Shown piece by piece: positions 3,099-61,288 of a stretch of 64,000 nucleotides of DNA. The translations under genes were made by a program, and so were the position numbers. Every line of letters begins with the position of its first letter. Positions within the stretch are counted from its first letter, which is position 1. Under the pieces are notes generated by a model that was not told the origin of the DNA, searched no databases, and worked only from the letters and a program-made list of their open reading frames with translations. Origin of the DNA: an uncultured Myxococcales bacterium (GTDB taxonomy: Bacteria > Myxococcota_A > UBA9042 > CAIXZC01); NCBI GenBank assembly GCA_964593355.1, contig CAZQHM010000021.1, positions 1,565 through 65,564 of the forward strand, read 5' to 3'.

Positions 3099-3743
3099 CT
3101 ATATGGAGCTGACCGCAGTGAAGGTCTTCCCGCTGCCCGTCGCCATCTGAACCAAGGAACGGGGGTGCCCGGCCGCAAGCGACTGTTCAAGATTTGTGAT
3201 GGCCTCGAACTGGCAGTCACGCAGGTTGGACTTCTCAAGCGGAGGCAGGTGGGCAAGTCGGCCCCTCAGAGTCGCACCCTGCGCAAGCCAATCCCGCAAG
3301 GTCTCGGGTCGATGGAACGAGAAAACCCGCCGAGACCGAGGTTCCGGGTCACGTAGGTCTCGGAAGAAGGTCTCGATTCCGGTGCTCTCGTAGCAGAAAG
3401 GGAGAGGAAACTGGGCGTGGGGGATGTGGGAGGGCAGCCCCGTGACATACAGCCCCGATTGCTCGGCAACGCCGGAGAGAGTTGCCCCAACCTTCTTGGC
3501 CTCCACAACACCAACGGCGGCCCGGTCCACAAACAGCAGGTAGTCTGCAGTGCCTCCCTTGACCGGAAACTCTCGCACCGCTACTCCAAGGCTGGCCCCG
3601 AGGTTGACCGAAGCGTAGTCCTGGACAGCCCAGCCGGATAGCTGAAGCTGCCTGTCGATCTGGATGCGTGCTTCCTGCTCAGGAGTCATGCGTAATACTC
3701 CACGTAGATGTCGGACGGTAGCAGGGCATGGGCGGGAGTGCAA
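3099..3743 (-). pseudogene. hsdR: Truncated type I restriction enzyme R subunit (HsdR) N-terminal fragment, ending just after helicase motif I
   Basis: 'MTPEQEARIQIDRQLQLSGW' matches the HsdR N-terminal family. 'ADYLLFVDRAAVGVVEAKK' is the nuclease-like core. 'QMATGSGKTF' is the Walker A / motif I, followed immediately by a stop after 214 aa (full length is expected near 1000 aa). No continuation is found in other frames. Confidence 0.6.
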
Positions 3744-3769: not shown

Positions 3770-3815
3770 CCTACACGGCCGCTGGGTTGATCGAGATATC
3801 TGAGCGGCCGTGTAG
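3770..3815. repeat. Palindromic element copy 1: 13-bp inverted arms around a 19-nt loop containing GATCGAGATAT
   Basis: 'CTACACGGCCGCT gggttgatcgagatatctg AGCGGCCGTGTAG'; a second copy is at ~15614 with compensatory stem changes. Confidence 0.6.
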
Positions 3816-4485
3816 GAATGCAAAGGGGGCCGTCGCTGCATCGGACACGACGCTGTACCGTCTCTTGCTGACGCTGCTCCACACGAACTTCGCTAAGAAG
3901 AGGCTCGGGCCAAAGCGAGAGGTCTCATACACCGTCTTCGATGAGGCCAACCGGCACTTCGTCTCCAACCTCCCCCTCGACCCGCTTGTTTCCGCCTCCG
4001 CTGCGGACTCTCGGCCCCAAGGCCTTCCACACGGCCAACACGGCTTTCTGCCCCAACAAACCCCAAACCCACAATCTGCCCCCTCCTCAGGAGTTGGGCA
4101 AAGCCTAGCCCTAACACGGCGGGTCCCTGGTCCTTCCCCCCGCCCAAGACAGCCTGGAGCATACATCCCCGATATTGGAGTTAACTACCCTGGTGCTCCA
4201 GGAACCTATTGTTATAGATTCTATATTATGGTTAGCGTGTGTGATGTAAATGGAGGCAATTGCACGTCGGACTATGAGTATGGCTATTTTGTCATGGATT
4301 GGGTGGTGTAGGGCCGACGAAGCAGACACATCGGCTTGTCGCTCAACCACTGGGAATTCAGCCGACCGGGACATCGTCATTGGAGAAGGACCATGGGAAT
4401 CGATTTAAGAGCCTCGAACCGACTACTTGGGTTCTGCTCTTGCATTTCAGGTTCTAACTGCGTAGCATCGGTGTCGCCTTAGGCA

Positions 4486-7017
4486 GTGTTCGAGGTCATG
4501 GGGGCTGTTATGAAATGTCAATGCTCGACTAAGCCACGGACTATGTGTCGCATTTGTGGTGTTTGGCGATTCGGTTTACGTTGGCGACAGTTGATGGGGC
4601 TTCTTCCTCTGCTGCTCGGCTCGGCAACGTTGGAGGGTTGTCCCTCCTCCTCTGAGACCACGTCATGGGATGTTCTCGAAGCCAGGGGGCAAGGGGACCA
4701 ATGGGACGTTGGGCTTGATGGGACCTTAAGGGAATCCACAAGGGAATCCACCGTCGCTGACACCCTGGAGATGCTGAGCGAGCTTGACTCTCCCCCTGAT
4801 CTTCTCCCCGACCACCTTGACGACGTACCGGTGCCAGATGTCCAACCTCCTGTGGGAGAGTGCTGCATGTCCGACGGAGATTGCGGCGCCAAGGGCCGGT
4901 GTGTCGGCCCTTATCCCGGTGGCGCAGCGGCTCATGGAGTATGCGCCGAAGTGCCTGGTTCACCACGGTGCTATGCTGACTCCGATTGTCCCACCGGTGC
5001 TGCCTGCGAAGGTGCCAACTGGTGTCAGTGCGGCCAGCATTGCGATCCTCCGGCCCTGCCTGGCTGGTGCGTTTCGCCGGATGCGGGATGCTGCGGCTCA
5101 GACGACGATTGCATCGGGACTGGCGACTGCATTCTGGGCCACTGCCTGGGGGTGAGCTTTGTGGGTGGTGGATTCTGCTGGCACGATGCGAATTGCGAGA
5201 GCAACGAGGAGTGTGTTGGTGAGTTCGTGTGCCCCTGTGGATACAGCTGTCCGGTGGATTCAGCTTTGGGGACTTGTCATGCGTTGGGGCCTGACTGCTG
5301 TGAAACTGATGAAGACTGTGACGGCCAGATATGTCTCCGCAAGACCCCTGCCAGCCCCGGTGTCTGCGGTCCCGAACTTGCGCCGGGCTCGTGCTATTCA
5401 AGCCACGATTGTGCGCCAGGGAACGTATGCAACGGTGCTATGATATGTCAATGCTCCGACAACTGTGCGCCGGCCATGGGCTCTTGTGGCGCCTGTTGCA
5501 CGGACAACAGTTCGTGTGAGGAGGGGTATGTGTGCGTGTTGGGGTCGTGCCGGTTGGCCTCACAGGTGCCTCGGTGTTGGCAAGTGAGTGACTGTACACA
5601 CGATCCCAGTTGCAGTGGCGACGGATGTGCAACGCAGTTCGATTGCCAAGGGGAGGTAATCTGCCAGTGCGGTACCACCTGTGCTCACCAGGAAGTCATG
5701 GGCTGGTGCCTACCGCTTGACGTTCAGGGACCAAATTGCTGTGTGGCTGACAGCGACTGCTGGGAAGGAACGGTCTGCGTACAGGGCAAGTGCCTCATTT
5801 CGCCAGCGGGCGGAGCATGCTGGGAGTCCTCCGGCTGCACTGCGGGCGAAGAATGCATCGGTGCCGAAGTGGAACCCTGTGGTCAACACCTGTGGCCCGA
5901 TTTCCTCCCTAAGATTGGCTGGTGCGGCGGAGCAGCCAAATGCTGCGGCACAGATGCCGAGTGTCCAGCGCCATTGGTTTGTGCCGGCCTTGACTCGGGC
6001 GCCGGCCTGTTGGGCCAATGCAGAGCACCGACCGAAGCGACCAATGACTGCTGGACCGACTCCGAATGTGCACAAGGATTCGAGTGCGTCGGAGTGCTTG
6101 CTTGCGGTTGCGACCCACTGTGCGACAAGGAGCAGGTGGGCTTCTGCGAGAAGACCACCTTTGTGCCGTGCTGTGGTAGCGACGCCGGGTGCCAGGACGA
6201 AGAGCGCTGTGTTGGTAACTTGCCGAACAAGCAAAACGGCCGATGCGTGCCGACGCAGGTGGCAGGCCAGTGCTACGAGGACTCGGATTGCGGAAGTGGT
6301 CAATGTGTTGGGGAAACCACTTGCAGCTGTGAATTGGAATGCTCACCTGTGGCAGGTACGTGCACGGCGCAGCCGCAGTGCTGCGAAACCGACGAGGAGT
6401 GCGAAGACGCTGGCGACGTCTGCGCAGCGGGAAGATGTAAAGCGGTCCCACCATACGGAGCCTGCTGGAGTGACCAGGATTGCCCCGCCCCGGGGATTCT
6501 TGAGTGCCTTGGGGCCTTCGTTTGCCCCTGCAACGAATCCTGCAACCAAAACGATCATGCGGGCGTTTGCATGAGTTCCACAGAGACCTGCTGCGGGACA
6601 GCGGCCCAATGCGGTGAAGGTGATTTGTGTCTCCACACCGGGGCCCCCAATTTGCAGGGCCGTTGCTACAGGCCTGCGGAGTACCCAGAATGCTGGAGTT
6701 CCAGTGATTGCGAGGAGGGAGCAACGTGTTGGGATGCAAATGTGTGCGCTTGTGAAGAAGTCGGCTGTGTTCCGAACATGGGAATGTGCCTGACATTTGA
6801 AGCCTGCTGCGAAGGAGATCAGGATTGTCTGAACACCGAAGTCTGTGTGCATCCAGAAGGGCAACCAACGGCCGACGGCACCTGCAAGTCTCTGGTACAG
6901 CCGGGAAGCTGCTGGAATAGCCAGAGTTGCCCAGCAGGTCAAACTTGCCAAGGGGCCAAAGTGTGTCCGTGCGGCGCCCTCTGTCTGGTTGCCGACCAAC
7001 TCGGAACGTGCCAGTAG
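4486..7017 (+). CDS. Secreted Cys-rich repeat protein (~18 repeats of ~45 aa, 'CCxxDxDC...GxCxxGxC' type)
   Basis: An 843-aa ORF. The hydrophobic N-terminus 'LMGLLPLLLGSATLEGC' suggests a signal peptide, so the true start is probably one of the downstream Met codons (about 4543-4594). Repeats include 'CCGSDDDCIGTGDCILGHCL', 'CCVADSDCWEGTVCVQGKCL', 'CCETDEECEDAGDVCAAGRC', 'CCEGDQDCLNTEVCV'. No catalytic domain is recognised. Confidence 0.7.
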   Translation: MFEVMGAVMKCQCSTKPRTMCRICGVWRFGLRWRQLMGLLPLLLGSATLEGCPSSSETTSWDVLEARGQGDQWDVGLDGTLRESTRESTVADTLEMLSELDSPPDLLPDHLDDVPVPDVQPPVGECCMSDGDCGAKGRCVGPYPGGAAAHGVCAEVPGSPRCYADSDCPTGAACEGANWCQCGQHCDPPALPGWCVSPDAGCCGSDDDCIGTGDCILGHCLGVSFVGGGFCWHDANCESNEECVGEFVCPCGYSCPVDSALGTCHALGPDCCETDEDCDGQICLRKTPASPGVCGPELAPGSCYSSHDCAPGNVCNGAMICQCSDNCAPAMGSCGACCTDNSSCEEGYVCVLGSCRLASQVPRCWQVSDCTHDPSCSGDGCATQFDCQGEVICQCGTTCAHQEVMGWCLPLDVQGPNCCVADSDCWEGTVCVQGKCLISPAGGACWESSGCTAGEECIGAEVEPCGQHLWPDFLPKIGWCGGAAKCCGTDAECPAPLVCAGLDSGAGLLGQCRAPTEATNDCWTDSECAQGFECVGVLACGCDPLCDKEQVGFCEKTTFVPCCGSDAGCQDEERCVGNLPNKQNGRCVPTQVAGQCYEDSDCGSGQCVGETTCSCELECSPVAGTCTAQPQCCETDEECEDAGDVCAAGRCKAVPPYGACWSDQDCPAPGILECLGAFVCPCNESCNQNDHAGVCMSSTETCCGTAAQCGEGDLCLHTGAPNLQGRCYRPAEYPECWSSSDCEEGATCWDANVCACEEVGCVPNMGMCLTFEACCEGDQDCLNTEVCVHPEGQPTADGTCKSLVQPGSCWNSQSCPAGQTCQGAKVCPCGALCLVADQLGTCQ

Positions 7018-7026
7018 CGATCGGAA

Positions 7027-7311
7027 TTATCCAACCAGATGCGCTATGAAGCCCGTCTGCCCGCCGCTGCGCACCACCTCCATTCTCCTTGAGTGGCGGG
7101 CCACTATCTCGTCCACGATGGAGAGACCGAGGCCCGTGCCGTGGTCCTTCCTGGTGAAGAATGGTTCGAACAGCTTCGACACGTCATCTTGGGCAATTCC
7201 CGGGCCGTTGTCCCACACAGCCAGAAATGCCTCCCCAGGTCTGCTCTCCACGACCACCCGCACAAGGCCCCCGTGGGAACCCGTGCACATCCTGAATGCG
7301 GGCAGGAACAC
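7027..7311 (-). pseudogene. Histidine-kinase HATPase_c C-terminal fragment (94 aa)
   Basis: 'FLAVWDNGPGIAQDDVSKLFEPFFTRKDHGTGLGLSIVDEIVARH' covers the G1/G2 boxes of a histidine-kinase ATPase domain. No HisKA or sensor region exists upstream in any frame, so this is a remnant. Confidence 0.5.
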
Positions 7312-7397
7312 CGTCTCGTTTGACTTCCTTTAATGCGTTGACAAAACCACCTCCGGTTTTCACAATCCGCGGGCTTGGTCTGCGGGAGGCGTGGTCT

Positions 7398-8804
7398 ATG
7401 GAGTTGACCCTTGACTGGCTGTTGGACAAGAGAGTTCACCTGCTTGGTATCGGCGGCATCGGTGTGAGCGGCGTTGCTCGTCTGCTTGCCGCCCGAGGTG
7501 TGGCCGTCTCTGGGTGCGACGTGCGTGAGTCGTCCATCATCGATGCGCTTCGCTCCGAAGGTATCGATGTGGCAATAGGGCATCGCCCCGAGCATGTGGA
7601 CCAGAGCGATGTGCTGGTCTACTCCACGGCGGTTCCCGGAGTGAATCCGGAGCTTGCATACGCCCGGGAGAAGGGCCATCCACTCTATCACCGGTCGCAT
7701 CTCCTGGGGGCCCTCTCTCTGGCCCACCTGCGCTCGGTGGGCATCACGGGCACCAACGGAAAAGGGACGGTCTGTGCCATGCTCACCCATATTCTCAGGG
7801 TGGCAGGCCTCAACCCGTCGTTCTTCGTTGGAGCGTTGTGCCCCAACCTGGGTACCAATGCACTGGCTGGCTCTGGAGACCTCTTCGTGGCCGAACTCGA
7901 TGAGTCCGATGGTTCCCTGGTGAACATCCGGCCCGACTTCGCCCTGGTCAATAACCTGGAGCTGGACCATCTCAACTATTACCGGGACCTGGACCACACC
8001 ATAGAGACGCTGGTCACCTTCATCGACCAGATGCCGCAACAGGGCGTTCTCTTCCTCAATGGGGATGACCAGGGCACGTTGGCCCTGGCGGCCCGGCTCA
8101 AGGGGCGCAGTTGCGTCCTCTTCGGCACCGGAGAGAACTGCAGCGTTCGTTGTGTGCCAGTAGCGGTCAGTGACGCAGGGACGGATTTCTCCGTCACGCT
8201 CGCCCGCCCCAATGGCCCGCAAGACCTGGGCATCTTCAGGCTCAACGTCCCCGGGCTCTACAACCTCGAGAACGCAGCGGGCGCACTGGCAGTGGCCCTC
8301 CACCTTGGAGTGGACCCCGCCGCTGCCAAGGAAGCGCTGGCCAGCTTCAAAGGGCTGCTGAACCGATATACCCTGGTCGAAGCCGCAGGGCGGAAGCTGG
8401 TCAAGGATTATATGTCGCACCCTACGGGGATACGGAAAGTGCTCCAGACGGCTCGTGTTGGCACCTCCGGGCGCCTCATCGCAGTGTTCAAGCCATACAG
8501 ATACACCATGATCAACTACCATGCGGAGAATTACGCCGCTGCCTTCGCCAACGCTGACGAAGTGGTCATCACCCGCATGTGGGAGGCTGGAGAGGACCCC
8601 ATCCCAGGTGTGGATACCCCATGGCTTGCCGACCAGATAGCCAAGGCCGGCGTCAAGGTTACATACATAGATCAGATGGATTCTATCACGGACCATCTGC
8701 TTGCAACTCAGCAACCAGGCGACTGCGCCGTCTTCTTTGGCGGCAATGACATGTTCGAACTTGTGGACGAACTGGCATCCAGGTATCAGTCGCTGACACA
8801 ATAG
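7398..8804 (+). CDS. murC: UDP-N-acetylmuramate--L-alanine ligase (MurC; Mpl-type ligase not excluded)
   Basis: N-terminal Rossmann 'HLLGIGGIGVSGVARLLAARG'; Mur ligase P-loop 'GITGTNGKGT'; 469 aa. Confidence 0.85.
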   Translation: MELTLDWLLDKRVHLLGIGGIGVSGVARLLAARGVAVSGCDVRESSIIDALRSEGIDVAIGHRPEHVDQSDVLVYSTAVPGVNPELAYAREKGHPLYHRSHLLGALSLAHLRSVGITGTNGKGTVCAMLTHILRVAGLNPSFFVGALCPNLGTNALAGSGDLFVAELDESDGSLVNIRPDFALVNNLELDHLNYYRDLDHTIETLVTFIDQMPQQGVLFLNGDDQGTLALAARLKGRSCVLFGTGENCSVRCVPVAVSDAGTDFSVTLARPNGPQDLGIFRLNVPGLYNLENAAGALAVALHLGVDPAAAKEALASFKGLLNRYTLVEAAGRKLVKDYMSHPTGIRKVLQTARVGTSGRLIAVFKPYRYTMINYHAENYAAAFANADEVVITRMWEAGEDPIPGVDTPWLADQIAKAGVKVTYIDQMDSITDHLLATQQPGDCAVFFGGNDMFELVDELASRYQSLTQ

Positions 8805-8812
8805 GCAATCAT

Positions 8813-10159
8813 ATGTACTCAGTGGAAGGCAAGTCGTTCAGCGTGCTGGGTCTGGCCCGGTCGGGCCTGGCTGCGGCCAACTATCTGGCCCGAAACGGGG
8901 CCGATGTCTTCGTCAGCGACCGGGCTCCTGCCCAGAAGCTGCCCTTGGACAAGCTTGACCCTCGGGTGACCGTTTGCGCCGGCGAGGAGAAGGTGCGCCA
9001 GGGAGACGTGGTCGTCATCAGCCCAGGAATCAAGCCTGGAACCCCCGCTCACTCCATGGCACACGAGCTTGGTAGCGAGGTCATCTCGGATATTGAACTG
9101 TTCTATCGGCTCTCTCCGGCTCCCGTACTTGCGGTGACCGGGACCGATGGCAAGTCGACCACAACGGCCCTGCTTGGCGAGCTGTGCGCCGCTGCGGGAT
9201 TCCCGGTCTTTGTGGGAGGCAACATCGGTGTGGCCTGCATGGATGGCCTGAAGCAGCTTTCCAAAGAAGGCCTGGCGGTTCTGGAAGTGAGCTGCTTCCA
9301 GTTGACCCACTGCTACCAGCTGAGACCCAGGGTGGCCTTGGTGACAAACATAGCCGAAGACCACGTGGAGTATCACGGCAGCTTCGAAGAGTATGTTGAG
9401 GCGAAGCGGAGGATTTTCCAGAGCATGGGGGCCGGCGATACCCTGGTGCTCAACGGAGACGATGAACTGCTGGCAACCTGGCAAACCCCCGCCGGCTGCC
9501 GACGAAGAACCTTCGGATGGAGTCAGGGCGGCGAGGCCTGGTGCGACGGCCAGAGCATATTCTTGAAGCGCGATGGCGAGTACCGCCGGCTTGTGGATCT
9601 TGATCGGCTGAAGCTGGTTGGGCGACATAACGCCGAGAACGTCATGGCGGCGCTGCTCTGCATCGATGGCCTGTTTGCCGATGCTTTTGACCTGGTGGAA
9701 GCCATCAAGGCCTTTCCGGGTCTTGAACACCGCATGGAATTCGTTGCCAAGGTGAACGGGGTGGACTTCTACAACGACAGCAAGGCAACAAACCCCCACG
9801 CCGCCATGGCCGTGGTCAACTCGTTCCCCGGGAACTTCGTCGTGCTGGCCGGCGGGTACGAAAAAGGCAGCGATTTCGGCGAGTTGGGGCGCCTCATTGC
9901 CGTGAAGACAAGGGCAGCGGTTCTCTATGGTGCCACCCGTGAGCGGCTGGCAGCGGTGATTCCTCAGGGCCACCCGGTCTTCCTCGTGGAGACGCTGCAG
10001 CAGGCTATTGCCAAGAGCCTCGAGCTGGCGCTGCCCGGTGATAGCGTGGTGCTGGCCCCGGCCTGTGCCTCTTTTGACCAGTTTTCGGATTTTGAAGAGC
10101 GTGGAAGGAAATTCAAGGATTGGGTTCGCCAATTGAACAATGGCGGGGAGAACAAATAG
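8813..10159 (+). CDS. murD: UDP-N-acetylmuramoylalanine--D-glutamate ligase (MurD)
   Basis: 'VLGLARSGLAAANYLARNGADVFVSD' N-terminal fold; 'VTGTDGKSTTTALLGEL' P-loop; 448 aa. Confidence 0.85.
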   Translation: MYSVEGKSFSVLGLARSGLAAANYLARNGADVFVSDRAPAQKLPLDKLDPRVTVCAGEEKVRQGDVVVISPGIKPGTPAHSMAHELGSEVISDIELFYRLSPAPVLAVTGTDGKSTTTALLGELCAAAGFPVFVGGNIGVACMDGLKQLSKEGLAVLEVSCFQLTHCYQLRPRVALVTNIAEDHVEYHGSFEEYVEAKRRIFQSMGAGDTLVLNGDDELLATWQTPAGCRRRTFGWSQGGEAWCDGQSIFLKRDGEYRRLVDLDRLKLVGRHNAENVMAALLCIDGLFADAFDLVEAIKAFPGLEHRMEFVAKVNGVDFYNDSKATNPHAAMAVVNSFPGNFVVLAGGYEKGSDFGELGRLIAVKTRAAVLYGATRERLAAVIPQGHPVFLVETLQQAIAKSLELALPGDSVVLAPACASFDQFSDFEERGRKFKDWVRQLNNGGENK

Positions 10160-11182
10160 ATGAACGAAGTGATTGATGAACTCAGGGACAAAGCGGAACG
10201 TGAACTGGCGCTTGTCCACGATGAAGGGGCCCTGCGCCTGGTGGAGATAACATACCTGGGCAAGAAGGGCTCGGTGCAGGGGCTTATGACCCAGATGAAG
10301 GCCCTCTCCCCCGAGCAGAGGCCGGCCTTCGGCAAAGAGGTCAACGAGCTGAAAGACTTTCTTGAGGAGCGGGTTGATACCCTGCGAGCGCAAATGCGCG
10401 AGCGTGAACTTCTCAAGGAGGTGATGGACCCCTACCTCGACCCAACGCTGCCCGGCATAAAGCCCTCACTGGGTGGGCTTCACCCGGTGACGGTTATCCA
10501 GCGCAAGGTTGAGGCGGTGTTCAGGTCTATGGGATTCATCATCCCAGACTACCCCGAGGCGGAATCGGAGTACTTCAATTTCGAGGCCCTGAACATTCCG
10601 TCGGACCACCCGGCCCGAGACATGCAGGATACCTTCTGGCTGACCGACGGCCATCTGCTCAGGACTCACACATCTCCGGGGCAGGTGCGGGCCATTAGAA
10701 CCTTCAAGCCGCCAGTCAGGGTGCTGCTTCCCGGCAAGGTCTACCGTTACGAGGCCGTGGACGCCTCCCACGAGCACACCTTTCACCAGGTGGAGGGGCT
10801 GCTCATCGACCGGGATGTCTCGGTGGCTCATCTGATTCACTCCATGAAGACGCTGGTGAGGGAGGTCTTTGAAAGGGACGTTACAATCAGGCTGAGGCCC
10901 GGCTACTTCCCCTTCGTAGAGCCCGGCTTCGAACTGGACATGGTCTGTTCGGTTTGCGGGGGCAAGGGGTGTTCGGTGTGCAAAGGCAGCGGATGGGTGG
11001 AGGTTCTTCCTTGCGGTCTGGTGCACCCCAACGTGATCAGGGCCGGCGGACTGGATCCAAACGAGTGGCACGGGTGGGCCTTTGGCCTTGGCCTGAGCCG
11101 CCTGACCATGATGCGCTACAAGATCTCTGGCATCAGAAATCTTATGGCCGGAGACTTGAGATTCTTGGGTCAGTTCATCTAA
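10160..11182 (+). CDS. pheS: Phenylalanine--tRNA ligase alpha subunit
   Basis: 'FNFEALNIPSDHPARDMQDTFW', 'GLLIDRDVSVAHL', 'AFGLGLSRLTMMRY' are class II aaRS PheS motifs; 340 aa. Starts 1 nt after the murD stop. Confidence 0.95.
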   Translation: MNEVIDELRDKAERELALVHDEGALRLVEITYLGKKGSVQGLMTQMKALSPEQRPAFGKEVNELKDFLEERVDTLRAQMRERELLKEVMDPYLDPTLPGIKPSLGGLHPVTVIQRKVEAVFRSMGFIIPDYPEAESEYFNFEALNIPSDHPARDMQDTFWLTDGHLLRTHTSPGQVRAIRTFKPPVRVLLPGKVYRYEAVDASHEHTFHQVEGLLIDRDVSVAHLIHSMKTLVREVFERDVTIRLRPGYFPFVEPGFELDMVCSVCGGKGCSVCKGSGWVEVLPCGLVHPNVIRAGGLDPNEWHGWAFGLGLSRLTMMRYKISGIRNLMAGDLRFLGQFI

Positions 11183-11206
11183 TCTCGAATATGTGAGGCA
11201 TATGCC

Positions 11207-13603
11207 GTGAAGATATCTTGGAATTGGTTGAATAGACATGTGGATTTATCGGGTCTGGACCCTCACGAAATCGCTCATCGCTTCACCATGTCGGTGGCGG
11301 AGTTGGATGGGGTTGAGGAGTTTGGCCGAAGCTACAATGAGGCGGTGGTTGCCAGGGTGCTGGAGATCGACGTTCATCCTCACGCCAGCCAGGTTCGCAT
11401 AGTGAAGCTGGACACGGGGCGGGGCACGGTGTCGTTGGTCTCGGGGGCGCCAAACCTGAGGGTTGGTATGCATCTGCCCTACGCTCCTCCTGGCGTTCAG
11501 TTGGAGGGGCTTGACGGCAAGCCTTTGGTCTCAGTGGTGACAATCCGGGGTGTCGAGAGCCCCGGCGTGGTCTGTTCTGAGAGGGAGCTGGGCATCTCGG
11601 ACAATCACGATGGGGTGATGGATATTCCGGAGGGGGTGCCCGTTGGCACGCCTCTGGCCGAATGGGCGCCGCTGCACGACTTCGTCCTCGAGTTGGACAA
11701 TACGTCCATAACCCACAGGCCTGACCTGTGGGGTCACAGAGGCATAGCCCGGGAGATTGCTGCGCTTGTGGGTCGCACCCTGCGGCCCTTCTCCATGGAG
11801 ATACCCCAGGGGGTTCAGGACCCGCTGGTGGTGACGGTTGAGGATCCTGATCTCTGCCCCAGGTATACGGCTTTGGTGTTCGACAACATCAAGGTAGCGG
11901 AGAGCCCGGTCTGGCTCAAGTGCATGTTGAGCATGGTAGGCGTGCGGCCTATCAACAACGTGGTAGACCTGACCAACTTCGTGATGCTCGATGTGGCCAA
12001 TCCCACCCACGCCTTCGACGCTCGGTTCATTGCCGGCCCCAGCATCAACGTTCGCAGCGCGCAGCCGGGCGAGGAGTTGACCACGCTGGATGGTCAGGAG
12101 CGGACTCTGGTGCTCTCCGACGTGGTCATTGCCGATGCGGAGAAGGGCATTGGGCTTGGTGGGATAATGGGGGGCGAGAACAGCCAGATTCTGCCTGACA
12201 CCAGCAGGGTGGTGCTGGAATCGGCCTCGTTCAATCCCTCGGCAATCCGTCGCACCTCGTCCAGGTTGGGTCTGAGAACCGATGCTTCTGTGCGCTTCGA
12301 GAAGGCACTGGAGCGTGAGATGCCCTTGCAGGCCACGGCTCTGTTTGCCCGTCTGCTGCCCGAGCTGGCCCCCGGGGCAGTGGTGGCCAGCCGCCTCTAC
12401 GATGTGGCGGCGCCTGCCCCGGCGCCCGTGGTGCTGGACGTCAAGCCGTCCTGGATTCGCAGGAAGCTGGGCGTTGACCTTGACGATGGGACCATGGCCG
12501 GGATGCTCGAGAAGATCGAGTTTGTGGTTGAGCGTTCCCACGACCGCTTCTTGATTCACGTTCCGCCCTTCCGGGCCACGCGGGATGTAACAATTCCCGA
12601 GGATATAGTAGAAGAAATCGGCCGTCTCTATGGTTACGACAACATTGTGCCCGTGCCCATCCTGGCTCCTGTTGAGCCGCCACCTCGCATAGCGGCCAAC
12701 GAACTCTCACCCGTTGTGGCGGACACCCTTGTGGGCATCGGCTATCAGGAGATCCTGTCGTACAGCTTCGACTCGGCGCAGTTCGCTGCCACCATGGGTT
12801 ACGACCTGTCCGAGGCCCCAGAGCTTCGCAACCCCATCTCGGCGGATATGCCCGTCATGCGCCGCTCGTTGCTTCCCAACATGCTTCTTGCGGCAGGCCG
12901 AAACGCCTTGGAATGGGACCAGTTCCGGCTCTTCGAGATGGGGCGCGTCTTCTTCACTGATATGGAGGGCGAGATTCCGTACCAGGAGAGGCGCGTAGCA
13001 GGCGTTCTTTACGGGCGCCACGAAGACAACTTCGACATCTATCGGAAGCTTCGGGGGGATGTAGAGCTTCTGCTTGGCAGGCTACACCGGGGCGCCCCCA
13101 AGTTTGTCGTGCCCGATGCCATGGCCAACATGCCCTGGACCGTGCCAGACAAGGCCAGGTCCATCGAGGTGGCAGGCAAGCTGGTTGGCTACGTCTCGCT
13201 GCTCAACCCTCTGGTTAGAGACAAGATGAAGGTTCGTGGCGCCATGGCCCTCTTCGAACTCAACCTCGAGGAGTTGTTCGAACTGCCCGAGGTGGTCCCG
13301 GTCTTCCAGCCGCTTCCACGGTTCCCCTCCATCGAGCAGGACATCAGCGTCATCGTGGAGTGCGAGATGCCCTTCGATGAAGTTGAGAGGGCCATTACCC
13401 GGCGCGGGACCGAACTGCTCAACGGATGTGCCCTCGTGGCTGTCTTCAAGGGGGCGCCAATCCCCGATGGGAAGAAGAGCCTCTCGTTCAGACTTGAGTT
13501 CCGCAGCCCCGAACGCACCCTCACCGATGACGACGTACAGCCGGTAATGTCCGACATTCTCGCCGGGCTGAGGGCCGACGTGGGCGGCGACATCCGCAGT
13601 TGA
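11207..13603 (+). CDS. pheT: Phenylalanine--tRNA ligase beta subunit
   Basis: 798 aa. N-terminal tRNA-binding 'MKISWNWLNRHVDL'; B3/4 and B5 regions; C-terminal FDX-ACB 'EQDISVIVECEMPFDEV'. Confidence 0.95.
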   Translation: MKISWNWLNRHVDLSGLDPHEIAHRFTMSVAELDGVEEFGRSYNEAVVARVLEIDVHPHASQVRIVKLDTGRGTVSLVSGAPNLRVGMHLPYAPPGVQLEGLDGKPLVSVVTIRGVESPGVVCSERELGISDNHDGVMDIPEGVPVGTPLAEWAPLHDFVLELDNTSITHRPDLWGHRGIAREIAALVGRTLRPFSMEIPQGVQDPLVVTVEDPDLCPRYTALVFDNIKVAESPVWLKCMLSMVGVRPINNVVDLTNFVMLDVANPTHAFDARFIAGPSINVRSAQPGEELTTLDGQERTLVLSDVVIADAEKGIGLGGIMGGENSQILPDTSRVVLESASFNPSAIRRTSSRLGLRTDASVRFEKALEREMPLQATALFARLLPELAPGAVVASRLYDVAAPAPAPVVLDVKPSWIRRKLGVDLDDGTMAGMLEKIEFVVERSHDRFLIHVPPFRATRDVTIPEDIVEEIGRLYGYDNIVPVPILAPVEPPPRIAANELSPVVADTLVGIGYQEILSYSFDSAQFAATMGYDLSEAPELRNPISADMPVMRRSLLPNMLLAAGRNALEWDQFRLFEMGRVFFTDMEGEIPYQERRVAGVLYGRHEDNFDIYRKLRGDVELLLGRLHRGAPKFVVPDAMANMPWTVPDKARSIEVAGKLVGYVSLLNPLVRDKMKVRGAMALFELNLEELFELPEVVPVFQPLPRFPSIEQDISVIVECEMPFDEVERAITRRGTELLNGCALVAVFKGAPIPDGKKSLSFRLEFRSPERTLTDDDVQPVMSDILAGLRADVGGDIRS

Positions 13604-14841
13604 ACGACGCCGGCGCTCACTTGAGAGGCAGCATGAGGCAGTGGCCAGAAGCAGTACTCTTCATAAGTAAACCCATGGTCCCGCCCTGGAACGACAGCGG
13701 CAAGAACCTGGCCAGGGATCTGGCTGGGGCTTTGAAGTGGCAGAGAGTTCACGTCATGGGAGTGCAAGGGGAGGTTGGTGGCCCGGCAGTTCCAGGCACC
13801 CTTGGTGTGGCAGCGGCAAAGCAGGCCGAGCTTGGGCAGATGGGCCCCAACGTCGTGTATGAACCGGTCTACTCTGGAACCGGCAGTTTTGGTGCGGGAA
13901 TCAGACAGAATCTGGCTCCGCTCAGGCGCCTGCTAACCCCCGATGATATTCCTCTATACCACTTCTTTTTCGCTCCAAACCCCAGAACGTCGCTTGTTGC
14001 ACGCTCACTGCTAACCATCAAGCGCCGAGCGACGGTGCATACCATGCTCAGTGCACCGGCTTCGTATGAACGGGCCAGTCGACTCCTCTTCGCCGACCGG
14101 ACCGTGGCCCTGAGTCATCACACCAAGGCCATGCTGGAGCAGCAGGGAGTGCAAGGCGTCGTAGTCATTCCTCCGTGCGTACCAACCAGGCCCGCCGTTT
14201 CTCAGGAGCGGAAACTCGGGGTGATGCAGAGGTTGGGCTTGACCACGGGGCGACCCTTTGTTCTCTTTGCCGGCGACTACGAGTACTCCTCGGCAGCATC
14301 AACATGCTCGCAGGCCCTGGAATCCATAACCGGTGAGGGTGGGGCTGACTTCGTCTTCGCCTGTCGAATGAAGAAAGGGCATATTGGAAAGGCTCTGGAG
14401 ACCAGCATTAGAGAGGGAATCTGCAATAGCCGCTGCGCTGCCCGGGTCTTCTTCTTCAACGAAGTGGACGACATGGATGCACTCATCGCAGCGGCCACCG
14501 TGCAGGTGATGCCGGCAGACTCTCTCTATGCCAAGATGGACATCCCTCTGGTGCTGTTGGAGTCGCTGCGAGAGGGTGTACCTGTGGTGGTGGCGGACCA
14601 CGGCCCTCTTCCGGAGCTTCTGCGCCGCCCCGTGGGCAGTGTCGTGCCCGTGAAGGACCCGGGGGCTCTGGCGGCCGCCGTGAACAGGCTGCTGGGGGAC
14701 CCGGAGATGCGGGCTTCCATGGGGCGAGAGGGCCAGGCCCTGGTAGATGAGGAGTACTCACCTGCCGCTATGGCCTCCAAGTACAGAGAGTTATATAAGG
14801 AACTTCTTGATAGTAAGGGGATTAAGTATGAGAAAAGATAA
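13600..14841 (+). CDS. Glycosyltransferase, GT4/GT1-fold (Glycos_transf_1 C-terminal domain)
   Basis: 'LLESLREGVPVVVADHGPLPELL...GDPEMRASMGREGQALVDEEYS' is a typical GT-B C-terminal motif. The start is uncertain: a TTG at 13600 overlaps the pheT stop, and an ATG at 13633 is an alternative. Confidence 0.65.
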   Translation: MNDAGAHLRGSMRQWPEAVLFISKPMVPPWNDSGKNLARDLAGALKWQRVHVMGVQGEVGGPAVPGTLGVAAAKQAELGQMGPNVVYEPVYSGTGSFGAGIRQNLAPLRRLLTPDDIPLYHFFFAPNPRTSLVARSLLTIKRRATVHTMLSAPASYERASRLLFADRTVALSHHTKAMLEQQGVQGVVVIPPCVPTRPAVSQERKLGVMQRLGLTTGRPFVLFAGDYEYSSAASTCSQALESITGEGGADFVFACRMKKGHIGKALETSIREGICNSRCAARVFFFNEVDDMDALIAAATVQVMPADSLYAKMDIPLVLLESLREGVPVVVADHGPLPELLRRPVGSVVPVKDPGALAAAVNRLLGDPEMRASMGREGQALVDEEYSPAAMASKYRELYKELLDSKGIKYEKR

Positions 14842-15541
14842 TAAAACATACTACGATGAGTTTTCGCAGGGATATGAAAAAGAGCGTTTCAAGCGCTATC
14901 ATCGGTTCCTGGACGAGAGCGAGCTGAGCATTGCCAGGCCCTACTGCGAGGGCAAACGGGTGCTTGAGGTTGGCTGTGGCACCGGTCTGCTTCTAGCGCC
15001 GCTGGCCGAGGTCGCCGAGTCTGCCGTGGGTATCGATTTGAGCGAAGGAATGCTGGCGAAGGCCAAGGAGCGGGGGCTTACGGTGAAGCAGGCGTCGGCC
15101 ACGTCGTTGCCCTTCTCGGACAGCTCCTTCGACACGGTGGTCTCGTTCAAGGTGCTTGCCCACGTGGAGGAGATTCAGAAGGCCCTGCACGAGGCCGTGC
15201 GGGTCACGCGCCCCGGGGGCCATCTTGTGCTGGAGTTCTACAACAAGCACTCTGTTCGCTCTCTGGTCAAACTGCTGAAGCCGGCCCATTCCGTCGCCGA
15301 TTCCACCACCGATGAGCAGGTCTACACACGGTTCGATTCGTTGTCGGACATAGCCTCTTATCTTCCGTCGGGGGCACAGATAGTGAAGGTTGCAGGCATC
15401 CGCGTGCTGGCCCCCACCTATCATTTCTATAACGCTCCGCTGCTTGGCACAGCCACCGTTGCTCTGGAACGAAGGCTCCAGAACTCTGCCCTGGCCAGAC
15501 TTGGCGGATTCCTCGTTGTGGTTGTTCAGAAGGCAGGCTAG
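14828..15541 (+). CDS. Class I SAM-dependent methyltransferase
   Basis: 'VLEVGCGTGLLLAPLAE' is motif I; 'LPFSDSSFDTVVSFKVLAHV' and 'LHEAVRVTRPGGHLVLE' follow. ATG at 14828, overlapping the upstream gene by 14 nt. Confidence 0.8.
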   Translation: MRKDNKTYYDEFSQGYEKERFKRYHRFLDESELSIARPYCEGKRVLEVGCGTGLLLAPLAEVAESAVGIDLSEGMLAKAKERGLTVKQASATSLPFSDSSFDTVVSFKVLAHVEEIQKALHEAVRVTRPGGHLVLEFYNKHSVRSLVKLLKPAHSVADSTTDEQVYTRFDSLSDIASYLPSGAQIVKVAGIRVLAPTYHFYNAPLLGTATVALERRLQNSALARLGGFLVVVVQKAG

Positions 15542-15613
15542 GGCTTGGGCCGGAGGTAAACCACTGCTCGCCATTCTCGTCCCCCCTTCGACTCGTCCCT
15601 GGCCTCGCTCAGG

Positions 15614-15658
15614 GTACACGGCTGCTGGGGGGATCGAGATATGTGAGCAGCCGTGTAC
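15614..15658. repeat. Palindromic element copy 2
   Basis: 'GTACACGGCTGCT ggggggatcgagatatgtg AGCAGCCGTGTAC'. It has the same loop core as copy 1, and the stem differs by compensatory changes (c/g->g/c outer pair, c-g->t-a inner pair). Confidence 0.6.
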
Positions 15659-15808
15659 TTCTGCCCGTGAGGCGTGGTGGCACTCAGGGCTGCGTCGCTT
15701 GAGCCCTATAGGGCTGGACGCATCATCGGCGTCGGCGATTCCCTTGACTTCCACAGGCGTTTTTGGCTTCCTTGCATGGTTTGGGTCCCTTTGAGCTGGA
15801 GGTTGCTT

Positions 15809-18406
15809 ATGAGAATCAGTGTGCTGTTATTCCTGTCGATGGTGGTGGCATGGTCATGCGGAAGCGACTCCAAGCAGGAGGCCCCTGATACCGGCCTTGA
15901 CGTGGTCTCGGAGGTGCAGGTCGATTCTCAGCCGGAACTTGCGGCAGACCTGGAGCCCGAAGAGTTGCCGCCAGTGGAGGATATCGAGGACGTCGCCCCG
16001 GAAATTGAGGATGTCGTCGAGGTCGAGGAGCTGGTACCCGAGGTCGTGGAGGTTGTCGAGGAGGTTGACACCCTGACCTGGGACTACCCCGACCCCGCCA
16101 TTGTCAACAAGATGGAGGCCCAGCCCCTGGTTAGCGCTGCCAGCACCTTCGTGGCCGATGAAACGGTGCAGTATCGCTGCCCGGACCACCTCCCTGGAAC
16201 GGCGGCCAGGGCGGTGAAGTGGGTTTCGGGTACCCTTTGGGTTGGCACCGACGCCGGGCTGTTCAAGTATCTTCCGGAGACAGATGCTTTCGAGCTTGTA
16301 CCAATTACAGAAAATAAATCGATTGTTGATATTGCTGGTAACATGAGTACTAATGGGCTCTTCTTCGTTGCCGCAACCGACGCAATAATCTGGTTCCAGC
16401 CTGCCGGCGCCCTGACGGGCACCCTGCCACTGCCTGACGACGCTGTGGAGTTCACCAGCGTGGCAGTTCAGGGTACCGATGTGGTGGCCGGGACGAAGGG
16501 GCTGGGCCTCATTCGAGTAATTCTCAACACGCCGGCGGACTACCTGCCGGCAGGCAGCGCAGGAGGCCCACTTGCGCCTGCGGTGAGGGATGTGGCCTAT
16601 GGACCGTCGGGTACGATCTGGGTGGCAACGTCAGAAGGCATCCTGGTGTTGGCCGGCGACGAGATTTCCAGAAAGAACGCTGCCAACGGCGACCTGCCCG
16701 ACGACGATGTCCGTGCTCTCTTTGTGGACTCGGCCAACTTCATCTGGGCCATAACCCCAACCTCAGTGGTCAGAATCAAGGGAGCGGAAACCAAGATTCT
16801 TACTGCGGGCGTGGGGATGCTGCCCACGGAGGCTCATCTCAGCATTGCGGTGGGACAGGAGATGCTGGTGCTGGGTCACGAAGTTGGGGCAACGGTGGTT
16901 GAGGAGCCCTTGAAGGGCGATCTTCTGTTCAAGCGGTTTGACCACTACCACTCCAAGCGTTTCTTGCCGGGCAACAGCGTCTACGCCGTTGCCATTGATG
17001 GAGATGGCAACGTCTGGATGGCCACCTCCGGCGGTGTTGCCAAGAGGCAGCTGCTGCAAATGACCTATGAAGAAAAGGAGGCGTTCTTCCATGAGATGCT
17101 GGAGCGCCAGTTCTGGCGCATGGATGGCTTCGTCTCCTCCGACGCCATCCTGGAGCACCCGGACCAGTACTACCAGGACGTAGACTGGCTGCGCTGGGAC
17201 AAAGACAATGATGGGCTATGGACACAGATGCAGATTGGGGCCTTCTGCTATGCATACGCCGTAACAAAAGACGAGAAGTATTATGAGGCGGCCAGGAAGG
17301 CCATGAAAAATATGTTTATGCTCGTAGATCTCCCTGCAGTGACCTTCGGAAAACGGGGCTTCATTGCCAGATCAATCGTGAGGGATGATGAGGGGGAAGT
17401 TTTCAATACGAAGATGGAGAGGGATAATTGGCACGAGGTGGAATGGGAGGGGAAGACATACTATTGGAAAGATGATACATCATCAGATGAAATCGATGGT
17501 CATTTTTACGGCTTCCCGTTATATTATGATTTATGTGCCAAGACAGAGGAGGAGAAGCAGGAAGTAGCCAAATATGCATCAGAAGTGCTTGACTACATCC
17601 TGGATAATGGTTACCTCCTGATAGACCTTGACGGTGAGAAGACAACCCACGGCCATTGGGGCCCGGATACAATTGGTTCTGCAGGAATAGGGCTCAATGA
17701 GTGTATGGCAGCGGCTAAGGGGAAGCCGAATATGGTTGATTTGGTGGCATGGTGTGTGGATTCATACTATGGTGGCGGATGGCTGAATGGAAACGAAATA
17801 GTAGGTGCGCTGCTTGCTACATATCACATGACCGGAGACAAGAAGTATTATGATGCATATGAGATACTTATTCAGGTTCATGGATATGATAACTTGCTGG
17901 TTCCTCACCAGGACACGCTGACAGTCACTAATCCAAGCATAATGAACCACTCCGACCATGAGCTTGCGATGTTGGCTTATCAGACAGTGCTAAGATATGA
18001 GCCGAATCCTGAAAGAAGGCAGAAGTGGATAGATGGGTTTAAGTTTTTCTATGATTATGAAGTTGTAGAGCGAAATCCCCTCTGGGCAGCATATGCGGCC
18101 CTGGCTATGGAGACCGACCCAAATCAGGTAGCCGAGACCCTGGTCAGCCTCCAGGAGATTCCAAGGGACCTCAGAGAGTGGGCCATTGATCAATCCCATC
18201 GCAAGGACTCATTGCCCTGGCCCCTGGACCGCTTCGACAAGCCCCAGACCGAGAACGTCTACCCATACGACGAAATCAGGACCATCTGGTGGAACGGCAA
18301 CTTGCACGTTGTGACCAGCGGCGGCGATGGGCGAAACGTGAACGGGCCGCTGGCGTGGCTGCTTCCTTATTGGGCCTTCCGATATGCCGGCATAATCTCC
18401 GAATGA
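15809..18406 (+). CDS. Secreted/lipoprotein with acidic linker, Reg_prop-like beta-propeller repeats and a low-GC C-terminal domain of unknown function
   Basis: ATG at 15809 has GGAGG 7 nt upstream; the ORF track start at 15674 is probably too long. Signal 'MRISVLLFLSMVVAWSCGS'. Acidic tract 'EDIEDVAPEIEDVVEVEELVPEVVEVVEEV'. Propeller-like repeats 'GTLWVGTDAGLFKY', 'GTIWVATSEGILVL', 'NFIWAITPTSVVRI', 'GNVWMATSGGVAKR'. The C-terminal ~270 aa (17270-18070) has markedly lower GC. Confidence 0.55.
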   Translation: MRISVLLFLSMVVAWSCGSDSKQEAPDTGLDVVSEVQVDSQPELAADLEPEELPPVEDIEDVAPEIEDVVEVEELVPEVVEVVEEVDTLTWDYPDPAIVNKMEAQPLVSAASTFVADETVQYRCPDHLPGTAARAVKWVSGTLWVGTDAGLFKYLPETDAFELVPITENKSIVDIAGNMSTNGLFFVAATDAIIWFQPAGALTGTLPLPDDAVEFTSVAVQGTDVVAGTKGLGLIRVILNTPADYLPAGSAGGPLAPAVRDVAYGPSGTIWVATSEGILVLAGDEISRKNAANGDLPDDDVRALFVDSANFIWAITPTSVVRIKGAETKILTAGVGMLPTEAHLSIAVGQEMLVLGHEVGATVVEEPLKGDLLFKRFDHYHSKRFLPGNSVYAVAIDGDGNVWMATSGGVAKRQLLQMTYEEKEAFFHEMLERQFWRMDGFVSSDAILEHPDQYYQDVDWLRWDKDNDGLWTQMQIGAFCYAYAVTKDEKYYEAARKAMKNMFMLVDLPAVTFGKRGFIARSIVRDDEGEVFNTKMERDNWHEVEWEGKTYYWKDDTSSDEIDGHFYGFPLYYDLCAKTEEEKQEVAKYASEVLDYILDNGYLLIDLDGEKTTHGHWGPDTIGSAGIGLNECMAAAKGKPNMVDLVAWCVDSYYGGGWLNGNEIVGALLATYHMTGDKKYYDAYEILIQVHGYDNLLVPHQDTLTVTNPSIMNHSDHELAMLAYQTVLRYEPNPERRQKWIDGFKFFYDYEVVERNPLWAAYAALAMETDPNQVAETLVSLQEIPRDLREWAIDQSHRKDSLPWPLDRFDKPQTENVYPYDEIRTIWWNGNLHVVTSGGDGRNVNGPLAWLLPYWAFRYAGIISE

Positions 18407-60049: not shown

Positions 60050-60208
60050 GATTACCTCCAAACCAGAGCCCCGTGGGGCCACAATGTGGCGGATTCTGCC
60101 TCATTGGGTTGGCCAAATCAAGGCTGGGGGAGGGGGTTCGCCGTAATCACTTGAATTCCGCGGGGGACTCTGAAAATATCATGTAATCTTGTGGCCTTGG
60201 AGGTCTTC

Positions 60209-61288
60209 ATGGGGCGACTCCTCTCTCTGGTCCTCCCCGTAGTAATGGTTGCGCTGGCAGCGTGCGGTGAGACGGTTATCATCAAGTCGGGCAAAAGCAA
60301 GTGCGAGGCTGACTGTGCCGGGAAGCAATGCGGCAACGACGGTTGCGGTGGCACCTGCGGCAGTTGCGGCATTGGCCTCTACTGCTTGAACTGGCAGTGC
60401 ATCGTGGGCACGGGGCCGGAAGACCTCCATGGGCTCTTGCCTCTTGGCGATACTACGGCCCCCGACGACGACATCTCTCCCATAGCCGACCTCGGGACCG
60501 ACGAATCGCTGCCCGATACCTCGGTGGCGCCGGACACGAGCAAGCCCGAGGATGTGGAGCAGGACAAGGGGCCGTCAGTGCCGGGCAAGTGCTTCTTTGT
60601 GTACGATGATGCCGACGACGACGGCTTCGGGGCTCTGGCGACGAAGGAGGAGTTTTGCGGTTATGATTACGTGCCTGCGGGAAAGTCGCTGAAATACGGC
60701 GACTGCAACGACTCGGACAGTCTGGTGAATCCCGGAATTCCAGAGTCGTGCGACGACCGTGACAACGACTGCGATGGGGTGGTTGACAACGGATGCGATG
60801 TGGATGGTGATGGCTACTGCACCGACAAACTCCCCATATTCGGGGTGCCGGCGGTCTGTACGAAGGGGCTCAACGACTGCAACGATTTCTCGGCTTCCGT
60901 CTTCCCCGGCAACTTCGAACTGCCCGGTGATGGTCTGGACAACGACTGCGACGGCGAGGTGGACGAAACGGTGCAGTGCCCAGGAACGTGCACGGGCCAG
61001 ACCGTGGATGCCTTCCTGTGCGCCATAGAGATTTGCTCGGGCCAATACCAGAATGCCAGTTTCTCGTCTCCCACCGGTGACAACATCTCCTCGGCATGGG
61101 CAGCGGTGAACCACTTCGGCAGCGTCAATAACGACCTGGCACCGCTGGCTCCGCCCTCATACTCACTCTTTGCCACGGGGCCAGCGCAGGGCACCAGCCA
61201 CTCAACAGATCTTTCAGGGGAGGAACGGCCACGGACAGCTTCTCCGGAGACACGATGTACGATGCCGTGGAGTTCGTCGTCACTCTGA
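60209..61288 (+). CDS. Lipoprotein with MopE-like putative metal-binding Cys/Asp repeats (N-terminal part of a frameshifted gene)
   Basis: ATG at 60209 has GGAGG 6 nt upstream. Lipobox 'VVMVALAAC'. 'CAGKQCGNDGCGGTCGSC'. MopE-type motifs 'CDDRDNDCDGVVDNGCDVDGDGYC' and 'CNDFSASVFPGNFELPGDGLDNDCDGEVDE'. The reading frame degenerates after ~61215. Confidence 0.6.
   Translation: MGRLLSLVLPVVMVALAACGETVIIKSGKSKCEADCAGKQCGNDGCGGTCGSCGIGLYCLNWQCIVGTGPEDLHGLLPLGDTTAPDDDISPIADLGTDESLPDTSVAPDTSKPEDVEQDKGPSVPGKCFFVYDDADDDGFGALATKEEFCGYDYVPAGKSLKYGDCNDSDSLVNPGIPESCDDRDNDCDGVVDNGCDVDGDGYCTDKLPIFGVPAVCTKGLNDCNDFSASVFPGNFELPGDGLDNDCDGEVDETVQCPGTCTGQTVDAFLCAIEICSGQYQNASFSSPTGDNISSAWAAVNHFGSVNNDLAPLAPPSYSLFATGPAQGTSHSTDLSGEERPRTASPETRCTMPWSSSSL

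Follow-up and report, generated by a model that had tools for sequence, protein, structure and literature searches.

The subject of this analysis is a pair of 45-bp palindromes in a 64,000-nt stretch of DNA from an uncultured Myxococcales bacterium (contig CAZQHM010000021.1 of assembly GCA_964593355.1; this whole stretch is referred to here as the window). [quoted passage not shown] The first-pass annotation of the window had recognized both palindromes, here delimited as 3771-3815 and 15614-15658, and had described them as intergenic and located on the same strand, all of which holds. It had also proposed that they were 5' untranslated region (5'-UTR) elements, small RNAs or symmetric operators tied to downstream genes for secreted proteins, but this assignment is not supported, given that no orientation rule with respect to the adjacent genes exists over 63 copies.

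A dispersed repeat with a conserved loop

The palindrome pattern put forward in that annotation matches exactly these two places in the window and none in 100 shuffled sequences, and a wider search, which it had suggested, yielded about 60 more copies with the same 19-nt loop in public metagenomes. The scan of JGI metagenomes employed a pattern that specified the stem only and left the loop free. It recovered 90 loci, with 59 matches carrying the loop GGGKGGATCGAGATATSTG in either orientation; some 35 other matches have unrelated loops, are chance hairpins and serve as an internal control. Because the loop was free in the pattern, its identity supports homology as an independent line of evidence. 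Ga0302238 is the source metagenome of nearly all true copies, with a few from Ga0116144 and Ga0209605. Almost all of the sampled copies originate from a few samples that hold this uncultured member of the Myxococcota or a close relative of it; the organism occurs in the samples ERZ27257504, SRR8476232, JGI Ga0302238 and Ga0116144. The 63 unique copies are distributed over 46 contigs of one metagenome plus other samples. One of the JGI contigs (L066, from Ga0116144) is the locus of the first window copy itself, with an identical copy at the same site and 98.6% identity over 1.9 kb. A sequence-only hidden Markov model run on all fetched DNA added 15 copies in 430 kb beyond those that defined the loci, that is, about one per 29 kb, in agreement with the two copies in the 64 kb of the window. 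An independent assembly contig from Logan, derived from another sample (SRR8476232_277780; L002, 1350-1372), that covers the same locus breaks exactly at the last base of the left arm of the hairpin, as is to be expected of a multi-copy sequence, which breaks assembly.

Elsewhere, the searches were negative. Among GTDB representative genomes, where the species itself is not represented, the loop-based pattern gave three matches, all within coding sequence and without stems, that is, by chance; the same applies to the six stemless matches of the loop core in viral contigs, and plasmid and phage searches gave no match. Within the window, a covariance model run with filters off produced strong matches to the second copy (72.4 bits) and the first copy (67.9 bits) only, and searches for half-sites and the loop core with mismatches revealed no convincing further copies. 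The parts of the copies in the window are as follows.

3771-3815, plus strand: copy 1, a hairpin on its own, C-TA-CACGGCCGCT-GGGTTGATCGAGATATCTG-AGCGGCCGTG-TA-G, consisting of C3771, TA 3772-3773, the 5' arm CACGGCCGCT at 3774-3783, the 19-nt loop at 3784-3802, the 3' arm AGCGGCCGTG at 3803-3812, TA 3813-3814 and G3815
15557-15658, plus strand: copy 2, a full element of the short form, with TA 15557-15558, the body AACC...CCGTG and TA 15656-15657
15557-15587, plus strand: left module (A) of copy 2, TAAACCACTGCTCGCCATTCTCGTCCCCCC(T)
15584-15614, plus strand: middle module (B) of copy 2, in which the C-run 15584-15587 is predicted to pair with AGGG 15611-15614 around TCGACTCGTCCCTGGCCTCGCTC
15614-15658, plus strand: terminal hairpin module of copy 2, G-TA-CACGGCTGCT-GGGGGGATCGAGATATGTG-AGCAGCCGTG-TA-C, with the stem 15615-15626 paired with 15646-15657 and the loop at 15627-15645
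61517-61546, strand not assigned: possible degenerate relic, AACACGGC-CCTTAGCGA-GCCGTGTAG, matched by the covariance model at 61518-61544 (14.5 bits, rough E-value 0.04)

In copy 1, C3770 and G3816 form a 14th pair, and the A and B modules are absent upstream. Copy 2 is flanked by G15556 and C15658, and the pair of G15614 with C15658 is incidental and additional to its stem; its match to the full element (15557-15657; nhmmer E-value 4.6e-31) is alignable with 32 other copies. The loops of the two copies have the same orientation, and for both a strong hairpin is predicted on either strand, with folding energies, flanks included, of -33 and -31 kcal/mol and z-scores of -5.4 and -2.9. Of the family features, the mini-hairpin at 61517-61546 shows the outer 7 bp of the stem along with the terminal TAG, without the inner stem and without the family loop, and is a marginal case that may be an internally deleted relic or a chance match.

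When the copies are oriented by the loop, about 60-100 nt are common to them on the 5' side only, with abrupt ends on both sides. The hairpin makes up the 3' end of a non-coding repeat that is built from modules and measures about 100-145 nt; the full element reads C-TA, then a body that starts with AACCACTGCTC and runs through a C-run, a small GC hairpin, a G-run and the terminal hairpin up to CCGTG, and then TA-G. The short form, of about 100 nt, is C-TA-AACCACTGCTCGCCATTCTCG-YCCCCCCC-(T)TCGACTCGGCC..GGCC..GCTC-RGGG-TA-CACGGCTGCT-loop-AGCAGCCGTG-TA-G; the long form, of about 145 nt, contains an additional block of about 42 nt ahead of the G-run, and even longer forms occur. Five copies, including copy 1, are stand-alone hairpins flanked by C-TA...TA-G, and one (L024) consists of the left and middle modules without the hairpin. 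RNAalifold predicts, for 33 full copies, the hairpin and a helix of the C-run with the G-run around the middle module (columns 37-40/64-67), in which one pair is CG in 18 copies and UA in 13.

The two ends of the element are related. Compared by eye, the consensus left end CTAAACCACTGCTC and the reverse complement of the right end CTACACGGCTGCTC agree at 11 of 14 positions (10 of 14 for copy 2, where the first base compared is the flanking G15556), so that, judging from the sequence, the left-end 14 nt and the right end look like terminal inverted repeats in the main subfamily. Given that the left end resembles the reverse complement of the right end, the hairpin can be understood as the end motif in two inverted copies, separated by a conserved spacer of 19 nt: the 13-14-nt motif occurs three times per element, at the left end and in each arm of the terminal hairpin, and in the stand-alone hairpin it forms perfect 13-bp inverted repeats. 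A ribosome-binding site and start codon pointing outward, suggested by an ATG on the reverse of the left module (GGGGACGAGAATGG...), were entertained and rejected, with distances to divergent genes that range from -7 to more than 2000 nt.

In three loci, the 3' end of the hairpin is adjoined by a second repeat module, GGTGCCAAGACCCGCCGGCAGCCTCCGGGGAGGTGGACCCCT, with its own palindrome CCTCCGGGGAGG, at the following sites, which implies that these genomes contain mosaics of several short repeat families.

L025, about 4800-4856: second repeat module
L068, about 1123-1180: second repeat module
L042, about 7365-7420: second repeat module

The possibility that these three loci are empty and filled versions of one site was rejected, because their common right flank is the adjoining second module.

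Pairing in the stem

The first-pass annotation had also pointed to two compensatory differences between the arms of the two palindromes, as evidence of selection on pairing. Both differences exist, but only one of them carries over to the family. The inner one, at stem position 10 (C-G vs T-A between the window copies), is a family polymorphism, with UA in 21, UG in 6, CG in 4 and another combination in 1 of 32 distinct hairpins; the outermost one (C-G vs G-C) is a boundary effect. This pair lies at the edge of the element and is unpaired in 26 of the 32 hairpins, so the difference reflects the flanking DNA; in copy 2, its 5' G is part of the larger element's G-run and its 3' C lies in the flank. 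The preservation of pairing itself is supported, with the arms remaining paired beyond what shared ancestry of the columns accounts for. Across the 32 hairpins, 89.7% of the cells are paired, and two-sided changes affect 5 of the 13 pairs; in 500 shuffles, neither the count of compensated cells nor the covariation score ever rose to the observed value, and pairing falls to 21-57% when the partner columns are slid by 1-3 positions.

Compensatory changes at four internal stem positions keep the pairing intact across variants, the diverged ones among which were found with the sequence-only model, where pairing was not required. Variant v2, with the arms TAAACGGCTGG / CCAGCCGTTTA, differs from the main type by C-G to A-T at stem position 4 and C-G to G-C at position 12, and the copy in the relative L009, with the arms TAGGTGGCTGG / CCAGCCGCTTA, adds one more compensated pair and two G.U pairs, with no A.C. 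Four variants (v1, v1b, v2 and v3) coexist in one metagenome. The pairing is broken in one chimeric copy, which combines the 5' arm of v1 with the 3' arm of v2, and decay is seen in several others. Palindromes can also be homogenized by template switching or repair, without selection.

Probable mobility and the competing explanations

A regulatory function, at the level of RNA or DNA, would entail a regular relationship with genes, and the distribution of the copies provides none. With genes called by a simple codon-likelihood finder trained on the clear genes of the window, 54 of the 63 copies are intergenic; the left neighbour has the same orientation as the copy in 28 cases and the opposite in 32, and for the right neighbour, the numbers are 28 and 27. 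The copies lie between tandem (31), divergent (12) and convergent (9) genes, at distances from 0 to more than 2000 nt, next to ordinary, unrelated chromosomal genes, such as recA, chorismate synthase and queC. The notion of a 5'-UTR cis-regulatory or processing structure of secreted-protein genes, a small RNA or a terminator has in its favour the stable hairpin with its maintained pairing, wobbles that are exclusively G.U on the strand with the loop GGGG..., which would suit RNA, and the terminator-like position of copy 2 after the last gene of an operon. We nevertheless consider it quite improbable. Apart from the lack of any rule of orientation or position, with an upstream gene co-oriented in 28 of 60 copies, a right-hand neighbour co-oriented in 28 of 55, and unrelated genes around, no U-tract is present, and what comes after the hairpin is TAG and variable sequence; promoter and terminator scans detected no promoter-like or terminator-like site at either window copy; and Rfam gives no match in the whole window at gathering thresholds, with only microRNA and long non-coding RNA noise for copy 2 at E-values up to 10. 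Copy 2, furthermore, lies upstream of a conserved promoter-like box, and orthologous loci have a copy elsewhere or none (see below). A side effect at the RNA level in the host, for instance, protection of mRNA 3' ends or processing by RNase III, is possible.

An operator, in which the arms would be half-sites for a dimeric transcription factor controlling the adjacent genes, is the least probable of the explanations that we considered, to the point of being hardly credible. The arms are indeed perfect inverted repeats, and both window copies are intergenic, but a 19-bp spacer between 13-bp half-sites is unusual for a single dimer, about 60 copies reside beside unrelated housekeeping genes and in all types of intergenic regions, including the 9 convergent ones that lack promoters, and the conserved modules of 60-100 nt on one side, the conserved spacer and the sharp ends find no explanation. 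In addition, within one genome the two halves vary in concert from one arm variant to the next, which is not what a single fixed regulator would be expected to favour.

The ends of the element are more informative. TA is directly repeated at both ends in 34 of 45 copies, with no longer duplication seen, and most copies have C to the left of the left TA and G to the right of the right TA; the only two with G on the left (copy 2 and L041), which belong to different subfamilies, have C on the right. This pattern fits insertion at a palindromic NTAN, usually CTAG, with a putative duplication of TA; a closing helix between the two ends would also fit it. Elements of the IS630/Tc1 type and their MITEs insert at TA with TA duplication, and IS630 inserts at CTAG and duplicates TA. 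Mobility is also suggested by individual loci. At L047, a composite insertion, about 170 nt long, interrupts an IS66 transposase gene within its conserved DGRLP/IDNN-AEN motif, and the element (10565-10667) is nested in that insertion among other short repeats. In the relative L009, a diverged copy sits in the opposite orientation between the promoter-like box and the start of the gene orthologous to that downstream of copy 2 (65% protein identity), whereas the orthologous locus of L010 has no copy and that of the window has it upstream of the box.

The mechanism that we favour, and that accounts for about half of our confidence in the mobile-repeat interpretation, is mobilization in trans by a TA-duplicating transposase that would read the thrice-repeated end motif. 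Copies would spread by insertion at TA, usually within CTAG, and would persist between genes only; the arms would stay paired because both must remain copies of the recognized motif. Alternatively or additionally, propagation could involve a stage of single-stranded DNA or RNA in which the palindrome has to fold, and pairing would be kept for that reason.

Several observations weigh against this mechanism or against the broader interpretation. The second left-end subfamily, CTAAACCAGTGACC, matches the right end at only 8 of 14 positions; the TA may be part of the element and not a duplication, given that C-TA...TA-G is self-complementary either way; and 43 bp, the length of a stand-alone unit, leave very little room for a cut-and-paste synaptic complex. 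Conservation of the 19-nt loop equals that of the arms, a feature for which a plain terminal-repeat model has no need. For most copies, the search pattern itself required pairing at 9 of 10 stem positions, which means that their stem conservation does not count as independent evidence. Where only one side of position 10 has changed, the result is T.G in 6 copies and C.A in 1, and these one-sided wobbles, together with the G.U pairs of L009, hint at a strand-specific single-stranded form. Finally, no autonomous partner was seen: among the 25 top families listed from a Pfam scan of 149 neighbouring proteins, the only transposases were those of IS66. No lone end motif bounds a gene or transposase in the sampled DNA, the window contains no transposase, and the genes between paired copies are unrelated: a toxin-antitoxin pair with an IS66 remnant, a PEP-utilising enzyme, an ATPase and HNH pair, and Cys-rich proteins. 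The only long repeats among the sampled loci are duplicate contigs, with no other multi-copy segment. IS66-type ends, suggested by a likeness to GTAAGCG..., were rejected, as there are no 8-bp duplications of the kind that IS66 makes.

Some of these difficulties are better explained by the main alternative, a single-strand route akin to that of REPs, in which the hairpin on one strand would be bound and cut by a HUH tyrosine transposase (a REP-associated tyrosine transposase, RAYT, or a TnpA of the IS200/IS605 type), with the conserved loop and the terminal TAG as determinants of recognition or cleavage, and the larger element as a composite comparable to bacterial interspersed mosaic elements (BIMEs) or palindrome-associated transposable elements (PATEs). 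The 43-bp units, typical of REPs in size, the conserved loop and the wobbles confined to one strand all are better accommodated in this way, and the compensatory changes across the coexisting variants, the asymmetric ends and the position of the hairpin exactly at the 3' terminus are in line with it. There is also a weak trend for the top strand of the element to be the G-rich strand at loci with strong GC skew (22 vs 10 of 32, p = 0.05), which we treat as inconclusive. Several facts speak the other way. GTAG is here the 3' end of the stem and CTAC its 5' end, no Y1 transposase is seen near any copy among the families listed, the copies as a whole show no preference for one replication strand by GC skew (28 vs 25), and TA...TA with C...G or G...C flanks is the signature of TA-duplicating DDE elements; the wobble asymmetry alone is not significant (7 events, one-sided p about 0.06), and the copies of a subfamily are not independent. 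On balance, we regard this route as possible, though clearly the less probable one. A narrower version, under which the hairpin is the single-stranded substrate of a transposition or processing enzyme, in a REP-like class with a reversed CTAC...GTAG tag in the stem, the loop as the site of recognition or cleavage, tolerance of G.U limited to the strand with the G-rich loop, and the longer elements as composites, seems rather unlikely.

Among known repeats, several kinds come close to this family. The Correia/NEMIS elements of Neisseria and the RUP elements of Streptococcus pneumoniae, the latter attributed to IS630-Spn1, are bacterial MITEs that duplicate TA. The present family resembles them in the size of about 100-150 nt, the non-coding nature and the many dispersed intergenic copies in both orientations, as well as in ends that look like imperfect inverted repeats (11/14 in the main subfamily), with TA at both ends, C before the left one and G after the right one, the short and long forms that differ by an internal block, and the ability of the whole element to fold; with its 100-145 nt, it falls within the MITE range of under about 300 bp. 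Unlike in those MITEs, the TA duplication is putative and no parent insertion sequence was found, the right-end motif is doubled and inverted to give a hairpin of 12-13 bp with a conserved 19-nt loop, and this hairpin can stand by itself, in a unit of about 43 bp that is far below the length of known MITEs. BOX of S. pneumoniae and ERIC/IRU of enterobacteria are modular, structured, intergenic repeats. The family shares with them the modules, the optional internal blocks, the high degree of structure, the intergenic location and the lack of a known mobilizing enzyme, but is unrelated in sequence and has sharp ends with a TA signature and a hairpin module that also occurs alone. PATEs are non-coding elements derived from IS200/IS605, with which the family has in common the asymmetric ends, the hairpin at or near the 3' end, the absence of a long target duplication and the hint of strand-specific pairing; unlike PATEs, it has dissimilar left and right hairpins, no conserved 4-5-nt target on the left only, no TnpA or TnpB gene in sight and no clear replication-strand bias.

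With REPs and BIMEs, the likeness lies in the GC-rich extragenic palindrome, present in high copy number, as single units and in mosaics with other repeats, in the compensatory stem changes with tolerance of G.T, and in the restriction to a species or lineage. The stem of 12-13 bp is at the top of the range of 6-13 bp reported for REPs (PMC3733652). In GTAG-tagged REPs, GTAG is located 5' of the stem-loop (PMC3733652), whereas here it lies at the 3' end within the stem, and the full elements read 5'-GTAC; the loop is a conserved 19-mer as opposed to the 2-4 nt of most REP families, and most copies form the 3' end of a longer directional element. REPs are associated with RAYTs (PMC2817692), none of which was found in the window or near the examined copies.

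The neighbourhood of the copies and the significance of the family

Almost the entire ENA metagenome contig ERZ27257504 k141_80660 (65.9 kb) is taken up by the window. Copy 2 is located 73 nt past the stop codon of a methyltransferase gene (14828-15541), the last in a run of genes for a Mur ligase, murD, pheS, pheT, a glycosyltransferase and the methyltransferase. The next gene, for a lipoprotein of 865 amino acids (15809-18406), begins about 150 nt beyond the copy; the named homologues of its product are proteins from metagenome-assembled genomes of Myxococcota, the closest being just 65% identical. A box, TTGACTT-N14-GGCTTSCT, is kept ahead of the orthologous genes in the relatives L009 and L010, as read by eye, at the following positions.

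15744-15776 of the window: TTGACTT box upstream of the 865-aa lipoprotein gene
L009, about 3269-3304: TTGACTT box upstream of the orthologous gene
L010, about 9592-9627: TTGACTT box upstream of the orthologous gene

Conserved over three genomes at 65% protein identity, TTGACTT-N14-GGCTT(G/C)CT is likely to be a promoter. In the window, it is downstream of the hairpin of copy 2, which, if the box is the promoter, lies outside the 5' UTR of the gene at 15809.

Copy 1 is 80 nt upstream of a truncated restriction-helicase fragment (3099-3692, minus strand), whereas the gene at 4486, for a Cys-rich protein, is 670 nt away. The fragment is N-terminal, matches HSDR_N and, at positions 2-42 only, the ResIII profile, and ends just past the Walker A motif. 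The 670 nt between copy 1 and the gene at 4486 (3816-4485) contain C-rich and AT-rich patches and an open reading frame (ORF) of 174 aa without a Pfam match, and the region adjoining copy 1 looks decayed or rearranged. The idea that the two copies are located upstream of paralogous genes on the minus strand was rejected: the ORF at copy 2 is antisense to the clear methyltransferase gene and is spurious, and the one at copy 1 is the restriction-helicase fragment. Farther away, the window contains a single ORF of 8,701 aa (25166-51271, minus strand) in which Cys-rich repeats recur dozens of times, at periods of about 159 nt and of 525-531 nt, a further Cys-rich secreted protein (4486-7017) and a protein with the MopE motif (60191-61288).

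A few observations come from the metagenomic loci. At L047 10450-10935, the IS66 gene is interrupted by the element and tandem repeats of about 24 nt that contain GTCGAGGGGCC, and the reading frame is open across the insertion. In L078 (11363-13376, minus strand), genes for an AAA-ATPase and an HNH-like protein look like a two-gene defence system; the pair lies between two copies of the element with the left ends facing inward (11043-11147 and 13316-13504). Two contigs from different metagenomes, 99% identical, differ by an 84-nt segment that is unrelated to the element, bounded by a short ACCA direct repeat and found in only one of them (L016, 408-491, compared with L095 at 13156).

The finding does not by itself open a long-standing question, but it bears on the way such sequences are read. 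In annotation, hairpins of this kind should be masked as repeats and not scored as regulatory RNAs or operators. If the TA-duplicating route is the actual one, the end motif of the family, CTAAACCACTGCTC...GAGCAGCCGTGTAG, together with TA, would be expected to bound the partner transposase. The family adds modular repeats to a phylum for which a full-text literature search found no relevant description of a MITE or REP and, with its clear ends, coexisting stem variants and stand-alone hairpins, makes a good case for the study of how short palindromes move, whether by a double-strand, TA-duplicating route or by a single-strand one that depends on HUH enzymes.

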